A DNA stretch of 64,000 bases, taken from SAR324 cluster bacterium (lineage in GTDB: Bacteria; SAR324; NAC60-12). The first letter of the stretch is position 1. Every line of letters starts with the position of its first letter. Where the stretch lies: the NCBI GenBank assembly GCA_015232315.1, contig JADFZZ010000003.1:156732-220731 (forward strand), written 5' to 3'. Positions 33,223-59,640 of this stretch are shown piece after piece. Both the position numbers and the translations under genes were made by a program. Below the pieces are notes generated by a model. That model saw only the letters and a program-made list of their open reading frames with translations. It had not been told where the DNA came from and did not search any database.

Positions 33223-33224
33223 TC

Positions 33225-35072: not shown

Positions 35073-35133
35073 TCCGGGATAATTTCGGGAGCAACCCTGA
35101 CTTGATTATCAAGTAATTACCGGGGCTCTCATA

Positions 35134-35281
35134 CAATGTCATCAACTCTGAATGGTGCTGAGCATTAATTCCCCCTTGGTTTAAGGGGGATAGGGGGATG
35201 TAATTCTGAGTGTTAAATCCCCCATACCCCCTTTGTAAAGGGGGATTATCCAGCGAAGAATTTTTTAAGTTGACGACATTG
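35134..35281 (-). repeat. MITE-like element, family 1 (~150 bp), with flanking direct repeat
   Basis: Termini are caatgtcatcaac / gttgacgacattg. The core carries hairpins cccccttggtttaaggggg and ccccctttgtaaaggggg. GGGCTCTCATA occurs at 35123-35133 and again at 35281-35291. Confidence 0.85.
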
Positions 35282-35400
35282 GGCTCTCATAGCCCGATGT
35301 GTTCGGAGGAACTCCGTATAAAAATAACAAAGACCGAATCAGAACGCATGCCATTGAGTGTCTGGTTCGTACAAAAAACAATCGTTAATGTGGAGAAACC

Positions 35401-36063: not shown

Positions 36064-36069
36064 GGCCCT

Positions 36070-43703: not shown

Positions 43704-46031
43704 ATGGAACATCTGGAAAAACTGAAAATTCTGGTACTCGATGATGAAACCGATCTCTGGGAAACCATTCAGGATGCTTTGAAACGGGAACCTTATGAAT
43801 TACACTTTGCCAAAAATGGCAGGGAAGGGTTAGAGCGTTTTTATGAAGTGAAACCCATCGCTGTCCTGCTTGACTTACGCATGCCCGTCATGGACGGTTT
43901 CGCCTTTCTGGACAAGCTTCGTCCAAACCGGGAAGATCCGTATTTTGTTCTTGTCCTCTCGGGTCATGGGGATGATGACGATGTGAAAGCCGCTTATCAG
44001 TTGGGCGCGCAGGGATTCCTTCGCAAGCCGTTCAATGTGTTTGAACTCCGGGGAATCCTCAAACAAAATATTGACTTAAAACAAACGCAAAACCATTCAA
44101 AACAGGAATTACAGCGTCTCTATCAGGAACAATTACAGGAAGCCGCCCGCCTGAAAGCCGAGCAGGAAATATCGGCCTTTTTCAGTTCGGTGTTCTATTT
44201 TGTGCTGGAAAATCTCGAGGAGAGGTCCCCTGAAGAAATATTGGCCTCCATTGAAAGTTTCCTGCGGGATGAAATGCGTCTGGATGTCGCGGTAATTCTG
44301 GATTCCCGACAACAACTGAACAGCTTCAATACCGTGGAAAAAGAACTACTGCTCAATGCGGAAGCGGAAGGAGAACTGATTTTTCGGGAAGGCGGTTATC
44401 TCATCTGCCTGATACGCCCCCTGTATGTCCTGATCAGAAATCCGCCGGATGATTTCGACCAGGACAAACTCCACACCTTTGTTTCTACCGCGGCGTCACG
44501 CCTGGGTTTCGCGATTGCCCAGGACAGCAAACGGATCATGCATGAGGTGTTTGAAGAAGCCGTACTCTTGATCAACAGTCTCGGAGAGATTGAACCCGGC
44601 TTCACTGATATTTGTTTGAAGTTGTTCCATATTGCCGATAAGGCCACGTTTCTGCAAACAACACCGGGAACCCTGATGTATGGAAACACCCCTGACGCGG
44701 AACACTTTCAGGAATGGATTCGCTTATGTTTTGAGGGGGCGCTGGATTTTTCGGACATGCGTGCGTTGCAACCGACAGAAATGAAATCCCCGGACCACAA
44801 AATTCTGGAGATAGAGATGATCCCTATCCGTGATAAGGATCAGAGTTTGAAATTTATATTGATAAAATTTAAAGACGTCACCGCCTTGCGTGAACAGCAG
44901 GTTGAACTTGAACACCAGCAACATGTGCAGTTAGCAACCCTGAAAGTCATCAAAAATCGATCAGCATTCCTGAATTATTATCGCCTGGTGATGGATAGTT
45001 TTTCCAGTCAGGACGCAATCTTATCGGTTCCGCATACTGATCTGATTCGTTCGTTACATACCGCAAAAGGGATGTCAGGTGTCTTTTACCTGAAAGGCAT
45101 CCAGCAAAAATGTCATGATGCCGAAACCCTGTTAAAACTTGAACCGACACTTTCACCGGGAAGTTCTGTGATCGAATTGATCCAATCCATTGCTGACTGG
45201 CTTCAGGATTTCATCAACAAAGAGGTTTTACACTGGGTTCTGGGGGAAGATGACCGGTCCTTCACCGTTGACAAAAACTGGTTTTTACATATCCAGCGTC
45301 AGTTTCAGGTTCAAACGGATTTCACGCAGAACAGGGTTCAGCATCTTCTGCGGCAAATCACCTTCATCCCGTTGATATCTCTGTTCAAGCATTTTGAAAC
45401 GGTTCTGCAGGATTTGGCAGTGGCTCGGGGTAAAAGTCTGTACCCTCTCATGATCAATGACGATTCCGGCATTTTTGTACCACCGAAGGTATTGGATAAC
45501 TTAATAAACTCCATGAGTCATCTCTTTCGCAATGCGGTCGATCATGGCATAGAAACCACTGAGACCAGGACCATGCTGGATAAAAATGAAATGGGTCGTA
45601 TTGATCTTCATTTAGAAAGTGATGCGACTCACCTGATCATCCGGGTTTCAGATGATGGACAAGGCATTGATCAAAACAAACTGTTGAAGCATGCCGTCTC
45701 AAAAAACCTGATTTCGGCTGAAAAAGCCACAACGCTGAACAACGATGAAATCCGGCATCTGGTTTTTTGGGATGGCCTATCCACAAAAGAAGAAGTTGAT
45801 CTGGTGAGCGGTCGAGGTGTCGGGATGAGTGATGTGAGAGCCTCATGCAGGGAACTTGGCGGCACCATTGATTATCAAACCGGGATTGGTAAAGGAACCA
45901 TCTGGACCATCGCTCTGCCCCTGGAACGTATTTATGGCGAACTGGTTCCGCCTGAATACTATGCGTTGAACATTGTTGAATCTGTCCCTGAAAAGTCGGG
46001 GGTTGGTCCTGTTTTCTGTCACAAATTGTAG
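43704..46031 (+). CDS. REC - GAF/PAS-like - HPt - CheA-type ATPase kinase (paralogue of 41426-43693)
   Basis: ATG 43704 follows AGGAAAAG. 775 aa. Same REC signatures, HPt LHTAKGMSGVF, ATPase boxes HLFRNAVDHGIE, DDGQGID, GRGVGM, GKGTIWTIALP. No P5-like domain. Confidence 0.85.
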   Translation: MEHLEKLKILVLDDETDLWETIQDALKREPYELHFAKNGREGLERFYEVKPIAVLLDLRMPVMDGFAFLDKLRPNREDPYFVLVLSGHGDDDDVKAAYQLGAQGFLRKPFNVFELRGILKQNIDLKQTQNHSKQELQRLYQEQLQEAARLKAEQEISAFFSSVFYFVLENLEERSPEEILASIESFLRDEMRLDVAVILDSRQQLNSFNTVEKELLLNAEAEGELIFREGGYLICLIRPLYVLIRNPPDDFDQDKLHTFVSTAASRLGFAIAQDSKRIMHEVFEEAVLLINSLGEIEPGFTDICLKLFHIADKATFLQTTPGTLMYGNTPDAEHFQEWIRLCFEGALDFSDMRALQPTEMKSPDHKILEIEMIPIRDKDQSLKFILIKFKDVTALREQQVELEHQQHVQLATLKVIKNRSAFLNYYRLVMDSFSSQDAILSVPHTDLIRSLHTAKGMSGVFYLKGIQQKCHDAETLLKLEPTLSPGSSVIELIQSIADWLQDFINKEVLHWVLGEDDRSFTVDKNWFLHIQRQFQVQTDFTQNRVQHLLRQITFIPLISLFKHFETVLQDLAVARGKSLYPLMINDDSGIFVPPKVLDNLINSMSHLFRNAVDHGIETTETRTMLDKNEMGRIDLHLESDATHLIIRVSDDGQGIDQNKLLKHAVSKNLISAEKATTLNNDEIRHLVFWDGLSTKEEVDLVSGRGVGMSDVRASCRELGGTIDYQTGIGKGTIWTIALPLERIYGELVPPEYYALNIVESVPEKSGVGPVFCHKL

Positions 46032-46058: not shown

Positions 46059-46346
46059 CCAATGTCGTCAACTTAAGGCGTTCTTCGCCGTGGAATCCCC
46101 TTTTCAAAGGGGTCATGGGGGATTTAAAGCTCAGAATAACATCCCACTAACCCCCTTGAACCAAGGGGAATTGGTGCCAGCGCCTTCACAATGTCGTCAA
46201 CTTAAGGCGTTCTTCGCCGTGGAATCCCCCTTTTCAAAGGGGTCATGGGGGATTTAAAGCTCAGAATAACATCCCCCGCCCCAGCACCCTTAAACCAAGG
46301 GGGAATTGGTGCCAGCACCTTCACAGGGCTTAACTTAACAGACGTG
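46059..46346 (+). repeat. Two head-to-tail family-1 MITE copies (46059-46188 truncated, 46189-46346 complete)
   Basis: Both begin caatgtcgtcaacttaaggcgttcttcgccgtggaatcccc. Only the second has a right end, and it is of the other subtype (cttaacttaacagacgtg). Confidence 0.85.
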
Positions 46347-46628: not shown

Positions 46629-49508
46629 ATGCTGCATATAGGCATTATCGGTGGATCTCAAAAACAGATTGATACCTTACTGGCCATCCATAACACCAAT
46701 AAAGTCCCCTTTTTTTCCAGATCAAATGCTGTCATTTCCGTGATTGAAGCGGAGGAATCCGCAGAGGAATTGCTGATTGATGCATTGTTTTATGTGTCGC
46801 CAGTCAGTCATCTGGAACATGATTCAAAGCAGGCGAGAGCGTCCATGAAATGGATCCGGGGACTCCGGAACTACTCCTCTTATGGCGTCCGGAAAACGAT
46901 ACGAGGTTGTCACCATCTGTTGATCGGAGACATTCCACAGTATTTGAACCAGATCAAAAAAATGGATATAGATCTGTTTGTTCATTTTCAGGAGAACCCT
47001 GAATGGCAAATCGTCGACAGCATAGAACTCTTGTTCCATAAGAGGGACTTGATTGAAATGCCCGAGATCCATTCTGTGACAGATTCCTCCAAAAACACGC
47101 GTCAAGCCTCAACGAATGTCCGTATCCCTGTCAGTGAAATCGATACAGTCCGGTTTCAGGAAAACGGGGATAATGAGAAGGCGTCCTTGAACGAATCATC
47201 GCCCCGGTTTCATTCGGTGCGCCTGAAAGATCAGGAAGGAGCCCAAACGATTGCGGAACTGAAGGGTGTGGATATTCCGTTTCAAAATATCACCTCCCTG
47301 ACTTTCAAGCAAAAAGGCCAGGGCAGGATGTCCCTGCCCGTTGATTCAATCCAGGCCTTGAAATCCGGGAAACACAACGTTTGGGCGCTGGAATTATTCG
47401 AATTGTGGAAAATCCGGGAAAAAGTATGTGCTTCGGGGACATTTCAGTTACGTCTGGACGCGACAGCCTTCAAAGACCTGGTCATTGATGAGGCTTCCTA
47501 TCTGCCGATCAGATTGAATCATGCTCTTTCGCGGGTCAACCGCCGGTGTGAAGCGCAACAATGGGACAAGTACATGGAATTCCGGACCTTCAGTCTTCAG
47601 GAACGTCCTGTTTTGATCGCGCTTGACGCGGATTTGGCGGCCATCCTGGTGAAACAGATCGGGAACATCGGGTTCAAGGATGTACGGATCATTACCAATG
47701 ATGATGAACTCGGGCAGACACTGAATGAATGCCATCTCTTCAATGAAAATCAGGAGTTTTCAACCACAGTCAAGTTTCCTACCTTAATCACGACCCAGGC
47801 TCGACAAGCGCAGATTAAACAACAATATCCGGCAATCCAATGTTATGGAATTCCCGGGTTTGACCTCATTGATCCCAAAAATATCGGGCAAAACGCGGAA
47901 CGGGAACTTTTAAAAAATGAAGTCGAAAACAAGATTCAGAGTCTCCTGCAAGAGGCTGAAAACAACCCCTTGCAGACGTTTTACCTCAAAATCGTTCATC
48001 TGTTCATGATGTACCAGCTTGAGGAAAATACCACTGATATCATCGCCAAACTGCAGAAACAGACGGAACATTTTATTGGAAATTTATCCAGACTGTTTCA
48101 GGCGGAAGCCCGGAAAATTCAGGAACAGAAGAATCTAAAACTGAAAATAGAGGCTAAAATCAAAGAATTGAACGCGGAGATTACCAAATTAAACCTTGCG
48201 ATCACTGAGGCGGAACAAAAAATCAAAAAACTGGATGGAGCTTTGCAGCAAAAAAAGGCCCTGACGGATCAAATGGCTGAACAGGAACATACCGTGAATG
48301 ATCTCAAAGACCAAATCAGCGCGACAATCCTGGAACAGGAAAAACTGAAACTGGAAGTCGAGGCCGACCGTGCGGATCGTGAGCAAACTACTCTGCAACT
48401 GGAAGAACTTAAAAAAAAGTATGATGATTTGTTGTTCCAGCACGAAAAAAATAAAGTGATTTTCGGTACGCCGGAGCAGGTCGCAAGAATCAAAAAACAG
48501 ATTCAAAAATTCCCTGCACGGAAACAGTCGCTGGAGGACCAGATTGCGGCAACTCAAAATATGCTCGACACACTGTCTGTTGCGGTGAAGCAACTCAACG
48601 GAACACAAAATAAATGTGCTCAACTCGAAACGCGTCTGAAAAATGAGAAGCATACCCTGGAACAGTTATCCGAAAAAGTGGAAGTCACCATGGGAAAACA
48701 TGAACGGGCCTTGAAGGCGTTTCTGTTGCATCATGAGAAGGTTACAAGCCGTTTGAATCTGGTTCAGGAAGCCTTGAATAAACTGAACCTCCGCTATCAA
48801 AAACTCAGCACCGATCTGATGGGGCGTGAATCGGCCTACCAACAGGAAAAGAGCCATGCTGAGTCGTTTGGTCAAAAAATTCTGAACTGGATCAGAAATA
48901 TCGGGGACATCAGTGAACTGGGCGAAGGGCTTTCCACTCTGGGAAACGAGGCCGATGTGGGCTTGCGGGAAATTAAAGAACTGATTGAGATGATCAATAA
49001 ATTGATGACTCTGCGGAAAATTCAGGATGCCGACCAGTCCCTGGTAACAGATGTCATGGCGACCCTGGAGAAAAATTTCACTTTTTATCATTTGCCGCAA
49101 CTGGAACAACTGGAGGCTCCGCTCGTTTTTATCGGGGACAAGATGAATTATCCTGTTTTCACCAACAAGTTACTGTCCATGGTTCAGGCCAATGAACAAA
49201 AGGGCGTCACGTTGAACTGGGATCGGTTTGAACATACCAATGTCTCATTTTCCAAACAGATCATCCTGCTCGACCTTTCAGATCGGGCCGACGATGAAGA
49301 ACTTCATGCGAAAGTCGGTGAGTTTTGCATGCAACTGGCGTTGCAAAACTTTATGATCATCCTGTTACCTGATGAAGTTCTCTTTGACCCTAAATGGCAG
49401 GTCTTCAGAAGCATGTCACTCTGCCTTCCCGCAAAACATCTGGACACCTTTCTGGCACCGCCCTTGTTCCAATGGATGCAAAACATCCAAAAATGGAATG
49501 CGCTGTAG
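46629..49508 (+). CDS. Large coiled-coil protein, unknown function
   Basis: 959 aa. The central ~330 aa are heptad-rich (KIKELNAEITKLNLAITEAEQKIKKLDGALQQKK...). The globular N- and C-terminal parts have no recognisable catalytic motifs. Confidence 0.75.
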   Translation: MLHIGIIGGSQKQIDTLLAIHNTNKVPFFSRSNAVISVIEAEESAEELLIDALFYVSPVSHLEHDSKQARASMKWIRGLRNYSSYGVRKTIRGCHHLLIGDIPQYLNQIKKMDIDLFVHFQENPEWQIVDSIELLFHKRDLIEMPEIHSVTDSSKNTRQASTNVRIPVSEIDTVRFQENGDNEKASLNESSPRFHSVRLKDQEGAQTIAELKGVDIPFQNITSLTFKQKGQGRMSLPVDSIQALKSGKHNVWALELFELWKIREKVCASGTFQLRLDATAFKDLVIDEASYLPIRLNHALSRVNRRCEAQQWDKYMEFRTFSLQERPVLIALDADLAAILVKQIGNIGFKDVRIITNDDELGQTLNECHLFNENQEFSTTVKFPTLITTQARQAQIKQQYPAIQCYGIPGFDLIDPKNIGQNAERELLKNEVENKIQSLLQEAENNPLQTFYLKIVHLFMMYQLEENTTDIIAKLQKQTEHFIGNLSRLFQAEARKIQEQKNLKLKIEAKIKELNAEITKLNLAITEAEQKIKKLDGALQQKKALTDQMAEQEHTVNDLKDQISATILEQEKLKLEVEADRADREQTTLQLEELKKKYDDLLFQHEKNKVIFGTPEQVARIKKQIQKFPARKQSLEDQIAATQNMLDTLSVAVKQLNGTQNKCAQLETRLKNEKHTLEQLSEKVEVTMGKHERALKAFLLHHEKVTSRLNLVQEALNKLNLRYQKLSTDLMGRESAYQQEKSHAESFGQKILNWIRNIGDISELGEGLSTLGNEADVGLREIKELIEMINKLMTLRKIQDADQSLVTDVMATLEKNFTFYHLPQLEQLEAPLVFIGDKMNYPVFTNKLLSMVQANEQKGVTLNWDRFEHTNVSFSKQIILLDLSDRADDEELHAKVGEFCMQLALQNFMIILLPDEVLFDPKWQVFRSMSLCLPAKHLDTFLAPPLFQWMQNIQKWNAL

Positions 49509-49819: not shown

Positions 49820-50185
49820 ATGTCCAAGAAAGCTTTGGTAATGGATGATTCACCGATTATCCGGAAAATGTTGACACATGGCCTGACCCGTTCGTTTGGC
49901 TTTGAGGTCATTGAAGCCGAAAATGGTCAGGATGGATTGACAAAGACCTCCCAACACGAGTTTGATTTGATTTTTTCCGATATCAATATGCCGGTCATGA
50001 CGGGGGTAGAATTTCTTGAAAAGTTCCGTAGCACCAACACCACAACCCCGGTGTTCATGCTTACCTCGGAAAAAGAAGATGTTTACAAACAAAAATGTCT
50101 GGATTTAGGAGCAACCGATTTTTTCAAAAAGCCGTTCAAACCAAATACCATCGAAGCCGCGTTGAAACAACTTCTGGAGGGGTGA
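49820..50185 (+). CDS. cheY: Single-domain response regulator, CheY-like
   Basis: 121 aa. VMDDS, FSDINMP (acceptor Asp), MLTSE (Thr), FFKKP (Lys). Confidence 0.85.
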   Translation: MSKKALVMDDSPIIRKMLTHGLTRSFGFEVIEAENGQDGLTKTSQHEFDLIFSDINMPVMTGVEFLEKFRSTNTTTPVFMLTSEKEDVYKQKCLDLGATDFFKKPFKPNTIEAALKQLLEG

Positions 50186-50233
50186 TCAGGCTGATTCATC
50201 AATTGCCAGACTTCTGGTTCCCATGCTCTGCGT

Positions 50234-50388
50234 CAAGGCTGTTAAGTTAAGAAATTACCTGCGAGAAAATCCCCCTTTTCAAAGGGGGCATGGGGGATTT
50301 AACGCTCAGAGTTACATCCCCCTAACCCCCCTTAAACCAAGGGGGAATTGGTGCCAGTGACTTCACAGGGCTTAACTTAACAGACGTG
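50234..50388 (+). repeat. MITE-like element, family 1, flanked by an 11-bp direct repeat
   Basis: Termini are caaggctgttaagttaag / cttaacttaacagacgtg. ATGCTCTGCGT occurs at 50223-50233 and 50389-50399. Confidence 0.9.
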
Positions 50389-50414
50389 ATGCTCTGCGTG
50401 GGAACCTCCGGGGG

Positions 50415-50566
50415 CAATGTCGTCAACTTAAGGCGTTCTGCGCCGGGGAAGCCCTCTTTTCAAAGGGGGCTTGGAGGATTTAACGCTCAGAATTACATCC
50501 CCCTAACCCCCTTGAAACAAGGGGGAATTGAAACACAGCACCATTCAGAATGCTTAACTTCTAACA
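50415..50566 (+). repeat. MITE-like element, family 1, with a degenerate right end
   Basis: It starts caatgtcgtcaacttaaggcg, has a conserved core, and its right terminus is decayed (cttaacttctaacacc). It lies 26 bp after the previous copy. Confidence 0.8.
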
Positions 50567-50577: not shown

Positions 50578-53500
50578 ATGGGTATAGTCATTGAACTGAG
50601 AGACTACAAAGACAATAGTGACAGTGGCGACTTGCCGTTAGGCAAAGACAGCTTTCAGGAAGTGACAACGGCCAGACAGTTGGTCGCGTTTGTCAAAAAG
50701 ACTGAAGGCAGTTGCGCTCTGACGATCAATTTGCCCAAAGTTGAATTGGCTAAAGCCATTCCCCAATTGGTTGAGTTACTGCACAAAAGCAATCCGGCAA
50801 TCCAGAAGCATGTGCTGGAAATCCTTGGCAATATGGGAATGCCGGAAGTCGTTCCCCACATCATTCCTTATTGTTTTCAACCAGACCCCTATCTCAAAGC
50901 CCAGGCAGTCAAGTCGCTCGAACTGTTGGGGCAACCGTCGGCGATCCTGCCCTTGAAAGATTTGCTCAATGATAAAAATCAACGCATTCAGAAAATTGTC
51001 AGGAATGCCTTGAGTAAACTCATCAGCAATGAATTTTTGTTGACGATGGTCAGCAACGAAGAAGAAAAATCAGGAATTTCTACAGAAGAAACATTCTTTG
51101 AGCTGATTTCTATCTTCAATGAAGAAGAATTCCATAATTTGTCTCCCGGCACAATGAAGTCAATTATTGAATTCTTCCGTAAAAATCATGAGAAAGCCCG
51201 ACGAACCGAAGAAAAACTCCTGCAAAAGCAATGGGAAGCCGATGCGGTAACGCAAAAATTATTTGAACTGCAACAGCAGTTGAAACAGAAATACTCTGAA
51301 TCCAGACTGGAACTCGATCTTTTCAGGAAAAGTATTTTGTCCCACACCGAAGAGCGGCATCTCTTACCGGGGGTGATCGACACTCAAAGTCATGAGTTGG
51401 AGCAGTTACATACACGTTTTGATGATCTTACCCGTGAAAACGCTGACGCCAAACTTGAGATTTCAAAGTTGCTGGCCACGCTTGAAGAGCAAAGGTCACA
51501 ACACAGGGCATCCCTGGCAACCCGGGAAACAGAAGCCGAGGCGGATGAAATCGGGTTGGAGCAAGCCTTAACCGCATCTCTCGAAGAAAATGAAACAGAA
51601 AATGAGGATGACGAACTAGAGCTGGAAGAGTCTTTAGGCGCTCTTGATTCAGCCTCCGACAACGAATTGACAGCGGAACATTTTGATCCGGGCATTGTAA
51701 TCTTTAATGAAGAAATCCTGGACGATCTGCTACTCAATGATCAAGCCCTTGAGTCCAGTGCACCGGCCAAACGGATGTTGTCTGAAAAAATTGTGATGGT
51801 CGAGCAAAATCATGATGCGTCAGACTACCTCAAAAGTTTGTTGAGATATGCCGGCTTTTCCAACATTGTGGTGTTTCATGATGGCCGACTTGCTTATGAA
51901 ACAATCCGTCAATCCCATGATACCATCAGCCTGATTCTGACGGCACGGTCTATTCCGCAAATGAACGGTCTGGAACTGTTAACCAAAGTGCGATCGTTTG
52001 AACAGGAAGACGGCTTGAAACCCTGTCCGGTGTTGATGATCACTGAAGATCTCAACACCTACAAAGTCAATGAACTCCACAAAGCCGGAGCAGCCGAAGT
52101 ATTTCCAAGGTTATTTATTCCTGAAAACTTCGTTGACAGGGTTATTCACCATTCTGGCGCCGAAAAGGCCTTGAGTGCTTCGAATCTGACCCTGGAGGCG
52201 GCCAAAGAAGAACTGCTCAATCTTGCTAAAACCTGTCAAGTCCAGTTTTGTAAAACCACTAAAAAACGCATCACCCTGTCTGTCAAATTCCCTCAGGATC
52301 TTCGTGCCGCGCCAACACGCATTCCCGGATTTCAGGAGATTTTTAAAACACTCATCGAATTCAGCATCGTTTCCGCGGTAAACCGCTCAACAGTCACTCT
52401 GCATTTCAAATCAACGGACTCATCCCGCGATTCAGTATTCCAGTTGAACGCCAGTTTTATTCCAGACAAAGGGAACACTTTTCTTTCTCTGGAAAATCAA
52501 TTCAATGATTTAGAGGACGTTGCCTCTGGAGAATTGAAAGAAGTTCAGAACACGGATACCCTGGGACAAAAATTCATCCAGATCACACTGGCGTTCTCAC
52601 AGCAGGGAATGATTCAATCCACTAAAGATGGACGTCACTCCAGTGAAGACTTCGATGATGAAGAAGTCTTTGATTTACTGGACGATCTGGAAGAAGACGG
52701 AAGCGATATCCAGAAAATTGTCTCCTCCCTGCATAAACTTTGTGAGGAAGAACCGTTCCGGTTGTTTTCAGTATTGGACTATCTCCATGATGGCCATTTC
52801 GAACAGGCTCACCGGGAAATTTTAGAAATGTTGCAGAAGTTGGACAGGGTCGATATCATCCCCTATTTAATCCGGCGTTTTCCTCAACTGCACAAGGAAT
52901 ACAAGCTGTGGACACTGTCCTTCATTGCTGAAAAAGATCTCAAAGCAGGACTGTACTTTATCATCAGTGTTCTCCGGGACGAGGATGAAGAAGTTCGGCA
53001 TCGGGTTCTGTCGGTTCTGCTCAAGCATTTTGACGCGTCTTTTCTGCACCTGTTGATGCATTCTTTTGTCCGTACCTTCCACCTGCCACGGACGATCAAA
53101 CAGACCGATATCCTCAGACGCCTTCCGCCAAAGGAACGCTCGGCGTTTTTTCAGGTTCTGTTGTACAATGAATCCTTTGAACTATCGGTTCCGTTCCTGT
53201 TCGGCTATCTGGACGCGGCGGCGCCCTATGAACAAGAATCGATTTACACTGCGTTGGCGGCCCAGGAATCGCTGGCGTATCTGGCTGAAGAACAGACAGA
53301 AATTCTCAAAAACCATTTTGAACAACAGCACGTTCTGCGACGTTTGCCTCGAATCACCTTGAGTTTGTTGCTGTCCACCAAGGCCGATCTGCTGAAATGG
53401 TTGATGAAACAGATCAAGCCCGCTCATTGGGTCGAAGTCTTCAAAGCAAGATTTGTGAAAGACATCAAATCAGGCTGGGAAGCCATGGGCATGTTTGTTC

Positions 53501-54426
53501 AGGAGGGAATGCAGGAAATACTCGATCATATCGTCCAGGCCGATGAATTGCTGGAAGCTGAGACTCTGGCAGAAGATCAGGAAAAAGAGATTTATCGAAT
53601 GCTTCACATGAGTAAAGGCATTGCCTTGAGTCTGGACCTGGAAATATTGGTCGCACTCTATCATTATGTGGAAGATCTGTGGTCCCATACCTTGAACAGG
53701 GACGACATGGATTTGGCAGAGTTGGACACTTTTAAAAAGCACTATAAATGCTTGCTCGATGTGACAAAAGCCGCTTCACGGATCTTGCGTCTGGCTGAAC
53801 ATGACGACTCCTTCCTGCGTGAAAAAATCGCGCTCAACAGTGTTTTCCCGAGAATGCAGCACCTCTTCAATAAATTGACAACGATGCTGAGAAAAAAAGC
53901 AACGTTGACCCTGCTCGAAGAAAAAGAGTTTTACCTGAACCCGAATTTGCTGAATTCCTTGAATGAGATGCTTATTCAATTATTAAAAAACAGTGTGGAC
54001 CATGGTGTGGAACTGAGTGAAGCCCGTCTTCGGGCCGGGAAATCTGAGGTTGGTGAAATTCAGTTGAGAATTGGTGAAAACAACGGGAACCTTCAGATCA
54101 TTGTTTCTGATGATGGCCAGGGACTTCAAATTGAGAGAATCGCAAAAAAATGTATTGAGAAAAATTTGTTGACTGAAGCTCAGGCAACGGCTCTTCTGAC
54201 AGACCCTGCCAGACACCATGAACTGTATGAGTTTATTTTTGCGTCTCAATTCAGCACAGCTCAAACCACCTCTGAGGTTTCCGGACGAGGCGTTGGTATG
54301 GATATCATCAAATCAGAATTGAATGACATGGGTGGAACGATCGCTATCGAATCAAAAGCCGGAATCGGCAGTTCCTTCATTCTTCAAATCCCCTTGCAGG
54401 AAAATCAAATCGTAACTGAAGCCTGA
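50578..54426 (+). CDS. HEAT-repeat / pseudo-receiver / HPt / CheA-type ATPase giant kinase
   Basis: 1282 aa: N-terminal HEAT/PBS-lyase-type repeats, a coiled coil, an acidic tract, and a REC-like fold without an acceptor Asp (LILTARSIPQMNG). More HEAT-like repeats follow, then HPt LHMSKGIALS and ATPase boxes LLKNSVDHGVE, DDGQGLQ, GRGVGM, GIGSSFILQIP. No P5 domain. Confidence 0.8.
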   Translation: MGIVIELRDYKDNSDSGDLPLGKDSFQEVTTARQLVAFVKKTEGSCALTINLPKVELAKAIPQLVELLHKSNPAIQKHVLEILGNMGMPEVVPHIIPYCFQPDPYLKAQAVKSLELLGQPSAILPLKDLLNDKNQRIQKIVRNALSKLISNEFLLTMVSNEEEKSGISTEETFFELISIFNEEEFHNLSPGTMKSIIEFFRKNHEKARRTEEKLLQKQWEADAVTQKLFELQQQLKQKYSESRLELDLFRKSILSHTEERHLLPGVIDTQSHELEQLHTRFDDLTRENADAKLEISKLLATLEEQRSQHRASLATRETEAEADEIGLEQALTASLEENETENEDDELELEESLGALDSASDNELTAEHFDPGIVIFNEEILDDLLLNDQALESSAPAKRMLSEKIVMVEQNHDASDYLKSLLRYAGFSNIVVFHDGRLAYETIRQSHDTISLILTARSIPQMNGLELLTKVRSFEQEDGLKPCPVLMITEDLNTYKVNELHKAGAAEVFPRLFIPENFVDRVIHHSGAEKALSASNLTLEAAKEELLNLAKTCQVQFCKTTKKRITLSVKFPQDLRAAPTRIPGFQEIFKTLIEFSIVSAVNRSTVTLHFKSTDSSRDSVFQLNASFIPDKGNTFLSLENQFNDLEDVASGELKEVQNTDTLGQKFIQITLAFSQQGMIQSTKDGRHSSEDFDDEEVFDLLDDLEEDGSDIQKIVSSLHKLCEEEPFRLFSVLDYLHDGHFEQAHREILEMLQKLDRVDIIPYLIRRFPQLHKEYKLWTLSFIAEKDLKAGLYFIISVLRDEDEEVRHRVLSVLLKHFDASFLHLLMHSFVRTFHLPRTIKQTDILRRLPPKERSAFFQVLLYNESFELSVPFLFGYLDAAAPYEQESIYTALAAQESLAYLAEEQTEILKNHFEQQHVLRRLPRITLSLLLSTKADLLKWLMKQIKPAHWVEVFKARFVKDIKSGWEAMGMFVQEGMQEILDHIVQADELLEAETLAEDQEKEIYRMLHMSKGIALSLDLEILVALYHYVEDLWSHTLNRDDMDLAELDTFKKHYKCLLDVTKAASRILRLAEHDDSFLREKIALNSVFPRMQHLFNKLTTMLRKKATLTLLEEKEFYLNPNLLNSLNEMLIQLLKNSVDHGVELSEARLRAGKSEVGEIQLRIGENNGNLQIIVSDDGQGLQIERIAKKCIEKNLLTEAQATALLTDPARHHELYEFIFASQFSTAQTTSEVSGRGVGMDIIKSELNDMGGTIAIESKAGIGSSFILQIPLQENQIVTEA

Positions 54427-54591
54427 ACAATAGTAAGCGTTCAGCCGTCAGTTATCAGTACGATATTTTTTGCTATTGAGTTATAATGCTTCTGAAGCGT
54501 ATAAACACTGAAAGCTGAATAATGAAAGCTGAACGCTTACGAACAATATTCTGTTCAGGTGTCAGTTTGACACCAAATCAATAGGAGAAAT

Positions 54592-54891
54592 ATGCTACCC
54601 ACTACTGAAAAAAAAAATGACCGTATTACAGCACGAGTGCCTACAGATATACGCGAACGTCTGATAGAAGCCGCAGCGTTTTCTGGAGCGACCCTGAACC
54701 AGTTTTTAATCCAGGCCGCAATTGAAAAGGCCAACACAATCCTTGAAAAAGAACGGATCATCCATCTCTCTTATCATGATGCGGAAGTATTTTTTAAGGC
54801 ACTGGAAAATCCCCCCAAGCCCAATCAACGTTTACGGAAAGCCATAACAAAATATAAAGATTCAGGCCTCTATGAACCCGTTCAAGATTGA
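54592..54891 (+). CDS. Type II antitoxin, DUF1778 / TacA-like (RHH)
   Basis: 99 aa. RITARVPTDIRERLIEAAAFSGATLNQFLIQAAIEKA. Overlaps the downstream GNAT gene by 20 nt. Confidence 0.85.
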   Translation: MLPTTEKKNDRITARVPTDIRERLIEAAAFSGATLNQFLIQAAIEKANTILEKERIIHLSYHDAEVFFKALENPPKPNQRLRKAITKYKDSGLYEPVQD

Positions 54892-55375
54892 GCTACTGAC
54901 AACAAAACATCACAAACAGAAATTTGATTGTGGTGTGAAAGAACTTAATCATTACCTTCAATCAATGGCATCTCAACATGCCACTAAAGGAATTTCCAGA
55001 ACTTTTGTTCTCGTACATCCTCAGGAACCAGAGAATATCCTGGGGTTTATCACTCTGTCCATCTGTGAGATTAACGCTCAAATACTTCCAACGCAGTTCG
55101 CCAAGAAGTTTCCCTCTAAAGTTCCTGGCGCAAAGATTGGTCGATTAGCCATCTCCCGAAAACATCAACGACAAGGATTAGGAGAACTCTTGATGCTTCA
55201 TGCAATGAATCAAACGCTTCTGGTTCATCATGTCTTTGGCCTTACCGGAGTATTAGTTGATGCTAAACATGAACAGGCACAACAGTATTACATCCGCTAT
55301 GGATTTATCCCATTACCCCAAATACCACTGACGTTATTTCTTCCGATAAAAACTCTCTTGGAAGCATTTAAATGA
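54872..55375 (+). CDS. GNAT-family acetyltransferase toxin (TacT/AtaT-like)
   Basis: 167 aa. FDCGVKELNHYLQ..., RLAISRKHQRQGLGELLMLHA (acetyl-CoA site), ...YYIRYGFIPL. The pairing with a DUF1778 gene is typical. Confidence 0.85.
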   Translation: MNPFKIELLTTKHHKQKFDCGVKELNHYLQSMASQHATKGISRTFVLVHPQEPENILGFITLSICEINAQILPTQFAKKFPSKVPGAKIGRLAISRKHQRQGLGELLMLHAMNQTLLVHHVFGLTGVLVDAKHEQAQQYYIRYGFIPLPQIPLTLFLPIKTLLEAFK

Positions 55376-55415
55376 ACAATCGCAATTGTTCGAGAAAGCC
55401 AACAGGGAAAACGCA

Positions 55416-56642
55416 ATGACTAATAAAGTTATCGATCTGTACCACTACAGAGATCCATCCTCCACCATGGAGACTGTCCTGACGCTTTTGTCGAAATGGT
55501 CACAAAAATCCCGGGAGCAGGCAAACCTTGATCATTTGAGATTAAGGAGCCTCCTGCCAGCCCTGTTTCTGGAATTCAACCATTATGAAATGGAGCTCAG
55601 AATCAAAGTGATCGATCTGCTGGCACAGGCTCAGATTTCAGAAGCTGTGCCCTTTCTGGTTGCCTATCTGAGTGATTCTGACCCGGAAATGAAAGCAAGT
55701 GTAATTCAGGCCCTGGGCGTGCTGAAGAATCACTTTGCGGTTCTGCCTTTGAAAAACGCCTATGATCATGAATCCCCGGAACTCAGGCAGGAGATTCTCA
55801 AAGCACTGAGCCTGCTGGTGGACGATGTGTTCTTTTCTCATTTTTTGGGGAGTGATCCAAATCTGAACAGAATTACGATTGCCATGGAACTTCTGGACAT
55901 GCTCTCGTCCGAAAATCAGCAATTACTATCTCCCCGGGGATTCAGAATGTTCCTGGATCAACTGCTTCCACATTTTTTAAAAATCCGACGTGCGGATTTT
56001 GATGTAAAAACATTAAAACAGACCATAAACACACTCGAAAATGAATTACATACGCATCATGATCAACATGAGCGTGCCCTTGAAACAATGAAATTCCAAA
56101 TGAAAATCCAGCATTTGCAGTTACAGGGTTTTCTGGAAGTTCCTTCTGCCCGGGATGTTTTGGAAAGTGACGCGCCTGTTGAGGAAAAACCGTACCCTGT
56201 GCAACCTCAAAAGTTTTTGAGTTTGAAGGAGGTGATTATTCAGGCAAACAAAAGTGTCCTTGAAGAAGACACCCGTAACAATGTGAGGAAAAAGGTAACC
56301 TTTACCAAAACGCTACAGCTCGAACCTTCGATGGCTGAGAACTTACTGTTGCTTCTGAAACACCTCATGAGCCTGGCAAATTCAATTGCGAGACCAGACC
56401 GGAAGGTTCAGATCCGGATCAATGACATACACGCGGATCAACCTAGCACTTCCACTATTATCACGATGAAAGGAACCGCCGTTGATCCAACCTCACTTGA
56501 ACGTTTGATCTCAACCCATCCCGTGTATCAGGAACTGAAAAGAACGGTTTCTTTTCTTGGCTGGACAGTAGACAGAACCATGGATCGTGGTGATTTCTGT
56601 ATCACGATTCAGGTAAAATCTCCCTCTTCAACTTTACCTTGA
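55416..56642 (+). CDS. HEAT-repeat protein, paralogue of the N-terminal part of the 1282-aa kinase
   Basis: About 408 aa from ATG 55416 (the track ORF begins at TTG 55386). VIDLYHYRD... and the HEAT units (AVPFLVAYLSDSDPEMKASVIQALGVL...) parallel VIELRDYKD... and PHIIPYCFQPDPYLKAQAVKSLELL in the larger protein. No HPt or ATPase boxes. Confidence 0.7.
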   Translation: MTNKVIDLYHYRDPSSTMETVLTLLSKWSQKSREQANLDHLRLRSLLPALFLEFNHYEMELRIKVIDLLAQAQISEAVPFLVAYLSDSDPEMKASVIQALGVLKNHFAVLPLKNAYDHESPELRQEILKALSLLVDDVFFSHFLGSDPNLNRITIAMELLDMLSSENQQLLSPRGFRMFLDQLLPHFLKIRRADFDVKTLKQTINTLENELHTHHDQHERALETMKFQMKIQHLQLQGFLEVPSARDVLESDAPVEEKPYPVQPQKFLSLKEVIIQANKSVLEEDTRNNVRKKVTFTKTLQLEPSMAENLLLLLKHLMSLANSIARPDRKVQIRINDIHADQPSTSTIITMKGTAVDPTSLERLISTHPVYQELKRTVSFLGWTVDRTMDRGDFCITIQVKSPSSTLP

Positions 56643-56702
56643 AAACAATAAGGAATTGTAAAAGAATCAATTGTAAAAGTTTGCTCGTGCCCTACGTCCC
56701 GT

Positions 56703-56856
56703 TCAGGGCTGTTAAGTTAAGAAATTACCTGCGAGAAAATCCCCCTTTTCAAAGGGGGCAGGGGGATTTAAAGCTCAGAATAACATCCCCCTAACCCCCT
56801 TAAACCAAGGGGGAATTGGTGCCAGTGCCTTCACAGTGCTTAACTTAACAGACGTG
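56703..56856 (+). repeat. MITE-like element, family 1, flanked by a 10-bp direct repeat
   Basis: Termini are tcagggctgttaagttaag / cttaacttaacagacgtg. TACGTCCCGT occurs at 56693-56702 and 56857-56866. Confidence 0.9.
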
Positions 56857-56925
56857 TACGTCCCGTGGTTCCTAACCAGAAAGTTTTCCCTGTTATTTTT
56901 TGAACGTTCCTAACAGTTGTTTCCT

Positions 56926-58050
56926 ATGATTGAGCACAAAATTATCATTGTTGATGATGAAATGATCATCCGGCATATGATAGAAAAAAAATTATCAGAT
57001 CAGGGTATTGAGGTGCTTCAGGCAACCGATGGACTCAGTGGACTCCAATTGATTCTTGAACATCCTGAGGTCAAACTTATTGTGACTGATTATAAAATGC
57101 CCCGGATGGATGGTTTTACCATGCTGAAAAAAGCCAGAGAGATCCGCTCGGACTTTCGTTTTATTCTGATGTCCGGTCATGCTCAAGGAGGCGATATTAT
57201 TGATGCCTTGAGGTTGTCTGCCAGTGATTTTTTTATTAAACCGTTCAATTTGGGGACTTTTTCGACATCCATCAAACGCAATTTGATTGAAATCGAGCAG
57301 GAAGCCACACAAAAGCACCTACAGGAACAATTGCTCCAGTCTGCCAAATTGGCTTCCATCGGGGAGTTAGCCACTGGAATTGCTCATGAAATAAATCAAC
57401 CACTGTCCTATATCAGCGGCCATGTTCAAACACTTCTGGAAGATATTGAACTGGAAGATGTCACCTTGAAGGAGGTTTATGCTTTAATGAAAGAGTTCGA
57501 AAAACGCATCGGGCGAATCAACTCCATAATATCCCATCTCCGCTTCTTTGGTCGTGAGCACGGATCAACATTCAGTGAGACAAATCTGGTCGATGTTTTC
57601 GAAAGCTGTCTGCTACTCCTCAACGAAAAAATTCGCCTCAGAAGCATTGAACTGAAATTTGAACACAGTGAAAATCTGCCTTTGATCAAAGGAAATTCTC
57701 ATCAGTTGGAGCAGGTGTTGATCAACTTGTTCCAAAATGCCATTGACGCTCTGGAACATCGAAACGATGGGCGCATCACCGTTCAAATCAACCATCATCC
57801 TGAAAAGGAGGTCATTGAGATACGCTTTACAGACAATGGAAGCGGCATTTCACCCAAGGATTTAGGTCACATTTTTGATCCGTTCTTCACGAAAAAACCG
57901 GTAGGAAAGGGGACGGGTCTCGGGCTATCCATCTCGTTTGGCATCATCCAGGCCCATCGGGGAACCATTGTCTGTGAGTCGGAACTCAATAAGGGAACCT
58001 GTTTCATCATCACCTTACCGACACCAACGGATCGAGAACAGACAGACTAA
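56926..58050 (+). CDS. Hybrid REC - HisKA - HATPase_c sensor histidine kinase
   Basis: REC (IVDDE, IVTDYKMP, LMSGH, FFIKP). H-box GIAHEINQPLSYI, N-box NLFQNAIDAL, G1 DNGSGI, G2 GTGLGLSIS. The track ORF begins at TTG 56917. Confidence 0.88.
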   Translation: MIEHKIIIVDDEMIIRHMIEKKLSDQGIEVLQATDGLSGLQLILEHPEVKLIVTDYKMPRMDGFTMLKKAREIRSDFRFILMSGHAQGGDIIDALRLSASDFFIKPFNLGTFSTSIKRNLIEIEQEATQKHLQEQLLQSAKLASIGELATGIAHEINQPLSYISGHVQTLLEDIELEDVTLKEVYALMKEFEKRIGRINSIISHLRFFGREHGSTFSETNLVDVFESCLLLLNEKIRLRSIELKFEHSENLPLIKGNSHQLEQVLINLFQNAIDALEHRNDGRITVQINHHPEKEVIEIRFTDNGSGISPKDLGHIFDPFFTKKPVGKGTGLGLSISFGIIQAHRGTIVCESELNKGTCFIITLPTPTDREQTD

Positions 58051-58092: not shown

Positions 58093-58214
58093 CGGTTATT
58101 TCTTTATGCCCCCTAAACCTGAAGGCAATGATTGATTTTATGACAGAATTTTAATCTTGTGAATGTGCCGTCAATCATTATTCTGACGCCCTTGATTATT
58201 TCCGGGGTAACGTT

Positions 58215-58367
58215 CACGTTTGTTACGTTAAGCACTGTGAAGGCACTGGCACCAATTCCCCCTTGGTTTAAGGGGGTTAGGGGGATGTTATTCTGAGCTT
58301 TAAATCCCCCATGCCCCCTTTGAAAAGGGGGATTTTCTCGCAGGTAATTTCTAACTTAATAGCCTTG
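58215..58367 (-). repeat. MITE-like element, family 1 (inverted orientation)
   Basis: Reverse complement of the 56703-type copy. Imperfect flanking duplication (G)GGGTAACG(TT) / (A)GGGTAACG(CG). Confidence 0.85.
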
Positions 58368-58485
58368 AGGGTAACGCGTGTGTCTCCTGATTCATCTTTC
58401 GTCAGTTTTTTTACATCAATCTGGTTCGGGAATTGTTCCAGCCAAGAATTATGATCTATTTTTTCAATGATTGTCTGATAATAAA

Positions 58486-59640
58486 ATGAAAACACAGACC
58501 GCCTCAGATCCCTATTCCTTTGACCGTATTTCTCCTGCTCCTGTTTCCGCTGACCAATGCACAGATTGCCGTAGCTATTTAATCTCTCTTTCTTTTTTCG
58601 CGAACGTAATTTTTGTGGTGATAGAAGGGTTTGTTGGAATCATGGCCGGTAGTCATGCCCTGGTCGCGGGCGCACTGCATTCACTGTCAGACACCACCAC
58701 TTTTGGCCTGAATTATTTTGAGGATCGGCGGCATTTAGCCAACGTACAAAAGGTGAATCCGGGCATCAATGTTTTCATGGGTGTCACCATGTTCATCGCG
58801 GGGGCCTGGATATGTGCCCGCAGTGTGTCGGCTCTTGTGATCAATGACCCCTATCGTCCCGGACTCATGGGGCTTTCGGTCGCGGCGATTTCAGTCGGCC
58901 TCAACTGGTATCTGTGGAATTTATCAAAATGTGTCTATGAAAATCACAAAGACCAGCGCGTCAACATCTGCAAGATTCAAAACACCCTCAATTTTTTTTC
59001 AGCGGTATTGACACTGACTGGCGTTTTGCTGGCTGATCTTGGTTTTGTATTTTTTGACCCCCTGTTTGCCGTTTTTATTGCTCTCACCATGATTTTCGCT
59101 TCCTCGTCCATCCTGCGAGAGACCTTTGGGGCCGATGATAATTTTACGCCGAAATCCAGGATGGTGATTTATCTGGTCATAGCCTTCCATGCCGCAATCA
59201 TTATATTCTTTGTGACGGCTACAACCATCAAAGTCCTTGATAGCCGCAATGTGATTCTTATTCCTTCAGAAGGCACAACGCTCGATAGCAAAATAGATTC
59301 CAGGCTGGGAAGATCCAACTATTTTATCATTTACGATATTCGCACTGACAGTGCTGTCACTGTGATCAATACAGACCGGAATGTCGAAGGGGACGTGAGC
59401 CACAACTTAATTGGTGTGATCGATGAGTACAACGTCGGTGTTGTGATCGCGCCGCATGTTGGCAAAGAAGTGTTTGATAAACTGGTATCAAAAAAGACAG
59501 CGATGTATTATGACGGTCACAATGTCACTGTCAACCAGGCCTTGCAGGATCAACAATCCGGACTTCTGGAGCAGGCTACAATCAACAACGTGGATCGTGG
59601 CTATGGCCGTAATGTTGTCAAATGGCTCAGTGTCTGGTAA
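58486..59640 (+). CDS. CDF-like membrane domain fused to a NifX/NifB-C-terminal-like (Nitro_FeMo-Co type) domain
   Basis: About 384 aa from ATG 58486. TM2 SHALVAGALHSLSD is CDF-like with Gly in place of the first Asp. After an extra TM, the C-terminal ~110 aa (SRLGRSNYFIIYD...VGVVIAPHVGKEVFDKL...MYYDGHNVTVNQAL) match the NifX-type cofactor-binding fold pattern. Confidence 0.65.
   Translation: MKTQTASDPYSFDRISPAPVSADQCTDCRSYLISLSFFANVIFVVIEGFVGIMAGSHALVAGALHSLSDTTTFGLNYFEDRRHLANVQKVNPGINVFMGVTMFIAGAWICARSVSALVINDPYRPGLMGLSVAAISVGLNWYLWNLSKCVYENHKDQRVNICKIQNTLNFFSAVLTLTGVLLADLGFVFFDPLFAVFIALTMIFASSSILRETFGADDNFTPKSRMVIYLVIAFHAAIIIFFVTATTIKVLDSRNVILIPSEGTTLDSKIDSRLGRSNYFIIYDIRTDSAVTVINTDRNVEGDVSHNLIGVIDEYNVGVVIAPHVGKEVFDKLVSKKTAMYYDGHNVTVNQALQDQQSGLLEQATINNVDRGYGRNVVKWLSVW

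Follow-up and report, generated by a model that had tools for sequence, protein, structure and literature searches.

HK1, a HEAT-repeat protein with a CheA-type P1-P4 core and two degenerate signalling domains, encoded beside the magnetosome genes of a SAR324 bacterium

The HK1 gene and its domains

The stretch of DNA analysed here (the window; 64,000 nucleotides of contig JADFZZ010000003.1, assembly GCA_015232315.1) comes from a magnetotactic bacterium of the SAR324 cluster, and contains, beside the host's magnetosome genes, a gene for a protein of 1282 amino acids (aa) that is named HK1 here. The shortened protein of 408 aa encoded downstream is called truncated HK2, and two kinases of 755 aa and 775 aa encoded in the neighbourhood are called K755 and K775. 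From the N-terminus onward, HK1 is composed of HEAT repeats, a heptad-periodic helix, an acidic tract, a receiver with alanine at the acceptor position, a degenerate CA domain, a second solenoid, an HPt domain and a P4 ATPase. These parts are located as follows in the window, with the evidence for each in brackets (ORF, open reading frame; AF2, AlphaFold2).

50578-54426, + strand: HK1, a 1282-aa kinase with HEAT, pseudo-receiver, pseudo-CA, solenoid, HPt and CheA-P4 parts (ORF, domain searches, orthologues)
50587-50616, + strand: N-terminal motif VIELRDYKDN, aa 4-13 (every column conserved or invariant when HK1 and HK2 proteins are aligned)
50713-51072, + strand: HEAT repeats of the PBS-lyase type, aa ~46-165 (Pfam HEAT_2, PDB phmmer)
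51166-51507, + strand: heptad-periodic helical, coiled-coil-like stretch, aa ~197-310 (hydrophobic periodicity)
51583-51630, + strand: acidic tract EENETENEDDELELEE, aa 336-351 (read from the sequence)
51778-52152, + strand: pseudo-receiver, aa ~401-525, with the Ala456 codon at 51943-51945 (Pfam Response_reg, CheY alignment)
52192-52602, + strand: degenerate histidine-kinase CA-like (GHKL-fold) domain with a preceding helix, aa ~539-675 (AF2, Foldseek, hhalign)
52645-52707, + strand: second acidic linker EDFDDEEVFDLLDDLEEDGSD, aa 690-710 (conserved in HK1 and HK2)
52660-53409, + strand: second alpha-solenoid, HEAT-like, aa ~695-944 (AF2, weak HEAT signals)
53419-53802, + strand: HPt domain, a CheA-P1-like helix bundle, aa ~948-1075, with the His1010 codon at 53605-53607 in the motif YRMLHMSKG (profile, BLASTP, AF2 helices)
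53833-54399, + strand: CheA P4-type ATPase, aa ~1086-1274, with boxes N (1135-1145), G1 (1178-1183), F (1221-1228) and G2 (1235-1242) (phmmer, Foldseek)

Full-length and collinear orthologues of HK1 (1242-1244 aa, 52-58% identity) are encoded in the SAR324 metagenome-assembled genomes nPCR_bin10 and nPCR_bin7 and in 'Deltaproteobacteria bacterium TL4', and one further orthologue (P0005) is partial. In the independent assembly GCA_015231535.1, a 1282-aa copy, 99% identical, has the same neighbours, including a toxin-antitoxin pair and the 408-aa gene. Because the orthologues are collinear in three other species and the same arrangement recurs in a second assembly, the idea that separate genes were joined by an assembly or frameshift artefact is practically excluded. 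Both reading frames lie where the original prediction had placed them, and the HEAT repeats, the alanine-bearing receiver, the HPt domain and the CheA-type ATPase are, as it had proposed, parts of one real gene, found in four species.

The first conserved feature is a motif common to HK1 and HK2, K-(V/I)-I-(E/D)-L-x-x-Y-(K/R)-D, which precedes the HEAT repeats (its form in truncated HK2 is VIDLYHYRD, at 55425-55451); it is disordered in the AF2 model, with a predicted local distance difference test (pLDDT) value of <50, and may be a docking peptide. In the HEAT repeats, Pfam HEAT_2 scores 57.9 bits at aa 61-145 (E = 1.3e-15), above its gathering score of 27.7, and phmmer searches of the PDB matched the repeats to alphaRep proteins derived from PBS-HEAT repeats (E = 3e-18) and to the phycocyanobilin lyase CpcE (E = 4e-4), so that the repeats are indeed of the PBS-lyase type that had been proposed. 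The coiled coil of the earlier description agrees with a hydrophobic periodicity of 3.5 residues at aa 197-308 (z = 2.5 and z = 5.2 against shuffles in a rough test). The acidic tract is present as described at aa 336-351, and its length differs among the HK1 orthologues.

Pfam Response_reg recognises the receiver over aa 405-521, with 41 bits where 30.2 are required, and the AF2 model of the receiver has a beta-alpha pattern at aa 401-502, with the C-terminal half at low confidence. It was aligned with the neighbouring CheY-like protein and with E. coli CheY. The position of the CheY acceptor Asp57 is occupied by Ala456, as the original prediction had noticed, and by A/A/S/A across four orthologues; Asp12/Asp13 correspond to Glu-Gln in HK1 (EQ/EE across orthologues), and Lys109-Pro110 to Arg-Leu in all HK1 orthologues. 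Since the substitutions of the acceptor, the acidic pair and the lysine are kept in the orthologues, this domain is regarded as a conserved pseudo-receiver, unable to accept phosphate.

A further degenerate domain, overlooked in the first description, sits between the pseudo-receiver and the second helical region. In the AF2 model, aa ~539-675 form a helix and then a beta-alpha-beta-beta-alpha-beta-beta unit. Foldseek searches with the 903-residue model of HK1 were dominated by P4; the GHKL fold was tested on the model of the 408-aa protein, and is assigned to HK1 by homology and by the same order of secondary structures. The CA-like domain of the 408-aa protein (aa 270-401) had histidine-kinase CA domains as its closest folds in the PDB, with VanS (8dvq) at a template-modelling (TM) score of 0.73 and a root-mean-square deviation (rmsd) of 3.8 Å, and further fold matches were MprB, ThkA, CckA, the degenerate HKRD of plant phytochromes and DivL (CA matches at E ~1e-5). 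An hhalign comparison of the HK1 domain with P4 gave E = 3e-4 and a probability of 38%. HK1 aa 539-675 have no match to the HATPase_c profile of Pfam, and no N, G1 or G2 boxes are found in the sequences or in the hhalign alignment with P4, where no Asn, DxGxG or GxGxG stands at the P4-aligned positions. Because the CA fold is thus combined with neither an HATPase_c match nor N/G1/G2 motifs, the domain is called a pseudo-CA.

The region that follows had been predicted to consist of more HEAT-like repeats. It is all-helical in the AF2 model (~14 short helices at aa 695-944, pLDDT ~80), and is the best-conserved part of the family, with identities of 72-75% within HK1 and 52-55% between HK1 and HK2, but its HEAT nature is weak by sequence. 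Pfam HEAT matches aa 794-814 below the cut-off (E = 0.0019), hhalign relates the region to the N-terminal HEAT profile (probability 70%, E = 4e-5), and a pairwise BLASTP comparison (E = 5e-4) relates it to the HEAT repeats of the 408-aa protein; its own profile found nothing significant in the PDB, the top two matches being the HEAT-type proteins alphaRep and YibA (E = 0.1-0.3). These signals are concordant, and the second solenoid may weakly be called HEAT-like.

The C-terminal HPt domain and CheA-type ATPase of the original prediction were both recovered. A profile of eight HPt sequences had CheA P1 domains as its top two matches in the PDB (2ld6, E = 4.4e-4, and 1tqg, E = 7.9e-4), with His1010 placed on the phospho-His. 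BLASTP of HK1 against K755, in which Pfam recognises an Hpt domain, aligned His1010 with the Hpt histidine; Pfam Hpt also matches the HK2 orthologue P0081 (E = 2.3e-4), and HMSKG is invariant across all HK1 orthologues. The ATPase matched the CheA P4 domains of T. maritima and E. coli at E ~1e-32 (phmmer), with ~30-33% identity to that of T. maritima, and its model superposes on CheA P4 with a TM score of ~0.9 and an rmsd of 1.7-2.8 Å (~2 Å; Foldseek). The HPt histidine and the N and G1 boxes are retained in 5/5 HK1 orthologues, and the F and G2 boxes in the four that reach that far.

The CheA core is defined as P1, P3, P4 and P5 (PMC10782961). HK1 has in common with CheA the phospho-His in H-x-x-K-G and the CheA-type N/G1/F/G2 boxes in P4; it differs in having no P5, no P2 and no recognisable P3, and in carrying ~950 residues of extra modules before P1. 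No Pfam CheW match was obtained in HK1 at E up to 0.1, and the reading frame ends 8 residues past P4, as is likewise the case in all orthologues. The NCBIfam CheA models match only aa 1086-1273, with 125 bits against a whole-protein cut-off of 793. The P3 hairpin gave no match to Pfam H-kinase_dim; P3 is known to escape HMMER, and a long helix at aa 1046-1075, between the HPt core and P4 in the AF2 model, is aligned by phmmer with the second P3 helix of 4xiv. The designation as a CheA-type kinase therefore stands for P1 and P4, but not for CheW/P5, which is absent, or P3, which is not detected. As P5 is absent, HK1 does not strictly qualify as a CheA; its architecture is a new variation on the CheA P1-P4 core. 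No CheW or MCP (methyl-accepting chemotaxis protein) gene was found among the reading frames scanned in the window.

CikA, DivL and the HKRD of plant phytochromes are examples of pseudo-receiver/pseudo-kinase modules. In such modules, as in HK1, a receiver without acceptor and a CA domain without ATP motifs are kept for interaction or regulation; unlike them, HK1 holds both dead modules in one polypeptide with an apparently active CheA-type core. Bacterial pseudo-receivers have been reviewed (PMC12632262). In CheA3 of Cereibacter sphaeroides, degenerate Hpt, P2, P3 and HATPase domains are kept between a working Hpt and CheW (PMC10782961). This protein of the CheA family contains, like HK1, recognisable non-functional signalling domains, and it works with a paralogous kinase of the same locus; however, its kinase domain is dead and CheW is present, whereas the dead domain of HK1 is an extra, class-I-type CA and the P4 domain looks intact.

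The rarity of this combination was estimated by an exhaustive HMMER search with HK1 aa 1-1075 against 1.84 billion cluster representatives. Matches that extended past the N-terminal HEAT repeats came from two clusters only, that of HK1 (representative P0004) and that of HK2 (representative P0082), and the remaining ~3480 matches were generic HEAT proteins aligned to HK1 aa ~50-160 only, so that a fusion of HEAT repeats to a CheA-type kinase is as unusual as had been supposed. A scan of 185,579 species representatives found the HK1 family in three species, and full-length HK1 orthologues are confined to four SAR324 species. A chimeric HK1 with an HK2-type C-terminus was considered and rejected: over its C-terminal 900 residues, HK1 shares 56-60% identity with its own orthologues and 37-39% with HK2. 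We found no description of the HK1 family or of its gene module in the literature on SAR324 magnetosome clusters, on HEAT with CheA, or on magnetosomes with histidine kinases, and the published SAR324 magnetosome clusters (nKLK_bin6, nPCR_bin7) are described without mention of HK1-type kinases (PMC7602337).

Truncated HK2, the toxin-antitoxin pair and the dispersed repeat

Downstream of HK1 the following features are located.

54592-54891, + strand: TacA-like (DUF1778, ribbon-helix-helix) antitoxin gene (Pfam TacA1, E = 1.1e-22, 80 bits against 21)
54872-55375, + strand: GNAT acetyltransferase gene, toxin candidate, overlapping the antitoxin gene by 20 nt (Pfam Acetyltransf_7, _10 and _1 above cut-offs)
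55416-56642, + strand: truncated HK2, 408 aa from the ATG (418 aa from TTG 55386 in the ORF list), with HEAT repeats, a short helical stretch and a degenerate CA-like domain (HK2 alignments, AF2)
56700-56861, no strand assigned: copy of a dispersed intergenic repeat resembling miniature inverted-repeat transposable elements or repetitive extragenic palindromes, ~60 nt past the stop of truncated HK2 (repeat comparison)

HK2 is a second giant kinase, of 1316-1356 aa and with a domain order like that of HK1, which occurs in the gene modules of nPCR_bin7, nPCR_bin10 and TL4. A homology search with the 408-aa protein returned only the protein itself, and it was tied to HK2 through BLAST and a comparison of gene neighbourhoods: its residues 1-255 share 55-58% identity with the N-terminus of HK2, and its residues ~265-403 are 26-33% identical to HK2 residues ~530-689, the pseudo-CA. 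The acidic and receiver segment that separates the HEAT repeats from the pseudo-CA is missing, as are the solenoid, the HPt domain and the ATPase. The start codon is most likely ATG 55416, because the similarity to the relatives begins there and two independent gene calls agree. The N-terminal HEAT architecture and the lack of HPt and ATPase, both reported for a 418-aa gene in the original prediction, are thus correct, but the gene is a truncated orthologue of HK2 with 408 codons and not an independent paralogue; it also encodes the degenerate CA-like fold, which was not in that description. Its HEAT repeats match HEAT_2 with 40 bits (cut-off 27.7). A split or frameshifted HK2 was rejected, as tblastn of four HK2 proteins against the window detected no remnant of the lost receiver, solenoid, HPt domain or ATPase.

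HK2 thus appears to have been reduced in the host lineage to a scaffold of HEAT repeats and pseudo-CA. That the 408-aa gene is instead a young, decaying pseudogene, left by a deletion and with no function of its own, is less likely, though a serious possibility. Some ~900 residues present in all four HK2 orthologues are gone, the dispersed repeat lies 60 nt past the stop, and the protein is somewhat less similar to the HK2s than these are to each other (56-59% against 62-69% in the HEAT repeats, and 25-30% against 41-42% in the pseudo-CA), all of which would suit decay. However, the 408 codons are open, both breakpoints fall at domain borders, the HEAT region is modelled as well folded (pLDDT ~90), and the gene is identical in the second assembly; moreover, the HEAT identity of 56-59% to the orthologues equals that of intact HK1 in the same species pairs (49-59%).

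The receivers of HK2 are canonical in 3/4 relatives (P0080-P0082), with the acceptor in T/S-D-W, a DD or ED pair and K-P; therefore, the ancestral pair would have consisted of an HK1 with a dead receiver and an HK2 with a live one. The fourth protein, P0079 of nPCR_bin7 (locus L001, 16284-20234), is of full length, and has Gln in place of the HPt His (LQQSKE), Glu in place of the receiver Asp, and a degenerate G2 box (SGRETGLN); judged by these residues, it looks like a pseudokinase. The point changes of P0079 and the truncation in the present host indicate that the catalysis of HK2 was lost twice, by different routes, with the HEAT end kept.

As had been predicted, the two HEAT genes are separated by a toxin-antitoxin pair. 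Like known TacA/TacT (DUF1778-GNAT) type II pairs, it consists of a TacA1-family antitoxin gene overlapping a small GNAT gene, here predicted from the sequence. The pair is missing at this position in the relatives' loci L001-L003 and present in L004, and is a lineage-specific insertion outside the conserved module. The only repeat found flanking it was a 26-nt hairpin past the stop of HK1, with no insertion scar. The arms of this inverted repeat (54433-54540, before the TacA-like gene) are 81% complementary with 56 nt between them; it could be a terminator or an operator of the toxin-antitoxin pair.

Scans for promoters and terminators gave nothing above shuffle expectation, and revealed the dispersed repeat. 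This repeat is ~110-190 nt long, with a hairpin core CCCCCTTTGAAAAGGGGG and ends CTTAACTTAACAG, and occurs at 35227, 38375, 46096-46346, 50216-50530, 56700-56861 and 58210-58352; its terminal inverted repeats lie at 50216-50251 and 50371-50406. Copies mark the junctions between K775 and the coiled-coil gene, between the CheY-like gene and HK1, between truncated HK2 and a REC-HisKA-HATPase kinase gene, and, inverted, between the latter and a CDF fusion gene, so that the REC-HisKA-HATPase gene (56917-58050) is bracketed by the copy at 56700-56861 and its inverted partner at 58210-58352, with arms of 126 nt that are 90% identical. No exact copy of the repeat core was detected in loci L001-L003 of the relatives. 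Rearrangement mediated by the repeat is a plausible cause of the altered gene order and of the truncation of HK2.

The signalling module and the magnetosome genes

Upstream of HK1 the window contains five further genes of signalling or coiled-coil type.

39740-41161, + strand: 473-aa response regulator with an uncharacterised C-terminal region (Pfam REC only)
41426-43693, + strand: K755, REC-Hpt-P4 kinase of 755 aa without CheW (Pfam REC, Hpt and HATPase_c; LLDLRMP, HTLKG, G1 and G2)
43704-46031, + strand: K775, REC-Hpt-P4 kinase of 775 aa from the ATG (817 aa from GTG 43578 in the ORF list), without CheW (canonical receiver)
46629-49508, + strand: 959-aa coiled-coil protein, first gene of the module (no Pfam family; SMC/Rad50-like coiled-coil similarity)
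49820-50185, + strand: CheY-like single-domain response regulator with all catalytic residues (Pfam Response_reg, E = 2e-29; DD, D, T and K present)

In the relatives, the module runs in the order coiled-coil protein, CheY-like protein, HK1, one or two REC-Hpt-P4 kinases, HK2, a DUF7793 (SpoIIAA-like/STAS-like) protein and a regulator, and this order is conserved in loci L001-L003 and L008. In the present host the order is a chemoreceptor zinc-binding (CZB) protein on the - strand, the 473-aa regulator, K755, K775, the 959-aa coiled-coil protein, the CheY-like protein, HK1, the toxin-antitoxin pair and truncated HK2; these are followed by the REC-HisKA-HATPase kinase and a CDF/Nitro_FeMo-Co fusion, and cobalamin genes start at 60 kb. 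The counterpart of the 473-aa regulator comes after HK2 and DUF7793 in L002, and orthologues of K775 lie between HK1 and HK2 in the relatives. The CZB protein (38680-39531, - strand), which lies between the mam genes and the module, stands alone and has two CZB domains; none was called in the relatives' loci.

In every genome the gene directly preceding HK1 is that of the CheY-like protein, which is conserved better than any other member of the module (72-78%). Orthologues of the 959-aa protein are ~40% identical and lie upstream of the CheY-like gene and HK1 in nPCR_bin7 and TL4; the protein shows heptad periodicity at aa 463-812, and its N- and C-terminal regions are without family match. 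K755 is 29% identical to the HPt and P4 domains at the C-terminus of HK1 (BLASTP, E = 2e-32). For K775, the GTG start of the ORF list overlaps the preceding gene, and in a near-identical assembly the gene was called with 775 aa, in agreement with a start at ATG 43704. Both K755 and K775 share with HK1 a P1-P4 core lacking P5, and differ from it in their canonical N-terminal receiver and in having neither HEAT repeats nor a pseudo-CA. This multi-kinase layout is reminiscent of the Che-like phosphorelay of R. centenum, in which phosphate reportedly flows between the hybrid kinases CheA3 and CheS3.

The magnetosome setting that had been suggested for the HEAT kinase is real, because the same window holds a mam gene cluster, with homologues of MamE, MamP, MamQ, MamK, MamM/B, MamO and MamA at 18.5-37.7 kb. 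The upstream part of the cluster encodes CDF transporters, DtxR/FeoA, FeoB, a 518-aa actin-like protein, a ParA/MinD-like ATPase, a MamE-like protease, a MamP-like protein with PDZ and magnetochrome domains, LemA/MamQ and a magnetochrome protein. The main part encodes a MamE with trypsin, magnetochrome and PDZ domains, a MamK-like actin, a CDF protein (MamM/B-like), a trypsin-TauE protein (MamO-like), a TPR protein (MamA-like), a second LemA and a second CDF protein, and ends at 37.7 kb. In the nPCR_bin7 locus (L001), the module is directly adjoined by an MmsF-like gene and by a counterpart, 62% identical, of the Na/Ala symporter found inside the present cluster.

Several genes of the cluster region are noteworthy in themselves. 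Genes of magnetosome type are duplicated (18559-23869 and 25941-37676), with two LemA/MamQ, two trypsin-PDZ MamE-like and at least five CDF genes, and the Na/Ala symporter gene lies between the two parts. The 518-aa protein of the MreB/Actin family (15709-17265, - strand) is encoded beside the ParA/MinD-like ATPase (17234-18016, - strand), and the MamK-like gene is separate (30865-32067). Between the MamE-like and MamK-like genes, a strongly purine-skewed region (28696-30816, + strand) encodes a 706-aa protein without Pfam match that has many repeats of ~31-33 aa, AEQERQAKEAELKRLAAEKAE, and may be a coiled-coil chain protein of the MamJ-like or Mad-like kind. Past truncated HK2, an unusual gene (58471-59640, + strand), conserved in L004, fuses a CDF membrane domain to a Nitro_FeMo-Co (NifX/NifB-like) domain; among the NCBIfam models MamM and MamB score highest, at ~63 bits, which is far below their cut-offs.

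Mad23 of Desulfovibrio magneticus RS-1 is encoded in a magnetosome gene cluster and has HEAT repeats and a coiled coil; its binding partners are the coiled-coil proteins Mad25 and Mad26, and it connects magnetosomes to form subchains (PMC12748827). HK1 resembles Mad23 in HEAT repeats, coiled coil and magnetosome locus, and is preceded by the gene for a large coiled-coil protein. Unlike HK1, Mad23 is without kinase, receiver and HPt domains, and HEAT repeats of the PBS type are widespread, so that the resemblance is architectural only. No Mad family is among the NCBIfam matches listed.

Possible function and meaning of the module

Taking these data together, we consider it somewhat probable that HK1 is a soluble, chemoreceptor-independent histidine kinase in a scaffold-tethered multi-kinase phosphorelay, likely assembled on magnetosome-chain or cytoskeletal proteins. 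In this scheme, P4 would bind ATP and phosphorylate His1010, from which the phosphoryl group would pass to a receiver. The likeliest acceptor would be the CheY-like protein encoded just upstream, and the canonical receivers of K755 and K775, or in the relatives that of HK2, could serve instead. The HEAT solenoid and the coiled coil would provide docking and dimerisation, and either the coiled coil or the pseudo-CA might dimerise the kinase in place of P3. The HEAT repeats, pseudo-receiver, pseudo-CA and second solenoid would then set the activity or location of the kinase by protein-protein contacts rather than by ligand sensing, and the module as a whole would be a physically scaffolded phosphorelay, most likely on magnetosome-chain or cytoskeletal proteins, for which a functional tie to the magnetosome may reasonably be proposed.

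Several points weigh against this scheme. Pfam Hpt does not match HK1 itself, and the HPt assignment, with a PDB profile match of E ~5e-4, would have to be called weak. The lack of P3 could impair the trans-phosphorylation that is typical of CheA. The AF2 models were built from alignments of 9-10 sequences only and have a mean pLDDT of 72.6 and a predicted TM score of 0.45. The CheY-like protein scores 61.6 bits against a cut-off of 189 for the CheY equivalog, far below it, and therefore a flagellar output is not implied. The link to magnetosomes would derive from gene neighbourhood in two species; the loci L002, L003 and L008 do not extend far enough for a magnetosome cluster to be seen, and the phyletic pattern is confounded by the shared ancestry of the four species.

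It is less likely, though a serious possibility, that the module is a lineage-specific two-component or Che-like pathway for development, stress response or surface behaviour, with no tie to magnetosomes and merely located in the same variable region. No module protein contains a magnetosome-specific domain, the module lies at the edge of the cluster and not inside it, with cobalamin genes at 60 kb, the dispersed repeats and the toxin-antitoxin pair mark the region as prone to rearrangement, and the four carrier species possibly form one clade. On the other hand, adjacency to genes of the cluster type recurs in a second species despite a rearranged order, beyond the module, on the side away from the cluster, there is a MamB/M-like CDF gene, and HEAT repeats with a coiled coil are the architecture of Mad23, a chain-organising magnetosome protein.

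A more specific version of the tethered phosphorelay seems quite unlikely on present data: HK1, HK2, the 959-aa protein and the CheY-like protein would form a dedicated pathway tethered to the magnetosome chain, in which the state, position or mechanical load of the organelle is converted into phosphorylation of the CheY-like protein, and the HEAT and coiled-coil parts would dock the kinases on the chain or on actin-like filaments. Very improbable is that HK1 is a catalytically dead scaffold, that is, a pseudokinase like its own internal pseudo-domains; two degenerate signalling domains do exist inside the protein, and decay to a pseudokinase is seen in the family in P0079, but the retention of the HPt His and the N/G1 boxes in 5/5 orthologues, and of F/G2 in four, and the superposition of the P4 model on CheA P4 at ~2 Å argue against it.

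Whether magnetotaxis involves passive alignment and aerotaxis only, or also signalling from the magnetosome chain, is debated, and the main lead so far has been a chemoreceptor that binds MamK in Magnetospirillum. The locus described here offers a concrete and testable set of proteins, a conserved module of one lineage beside magnetosome genes, whose CheA-type cores have lost their coupling to chemoreceptors and acquired HEAT and coiled-coil modules similar in kind to those of Mad23. If the pathway tethered to the chain does exist, active magnetoreception, or feedback on organelle positioning, would have a route at the level of kinases that bypasses chemoreceptor arrays. Apart from magnetosomes, the family plainly illustrates how nature has rebuilt a CheA P1-P4 core by adding a pseudo-receiver and a pseudo-CA, and HK2 displays stepwise decay across species: intact in three relatives, a point-mutated, apparent pseudokinase in nPCR_bin7, and a truncated scaffold in the present host.

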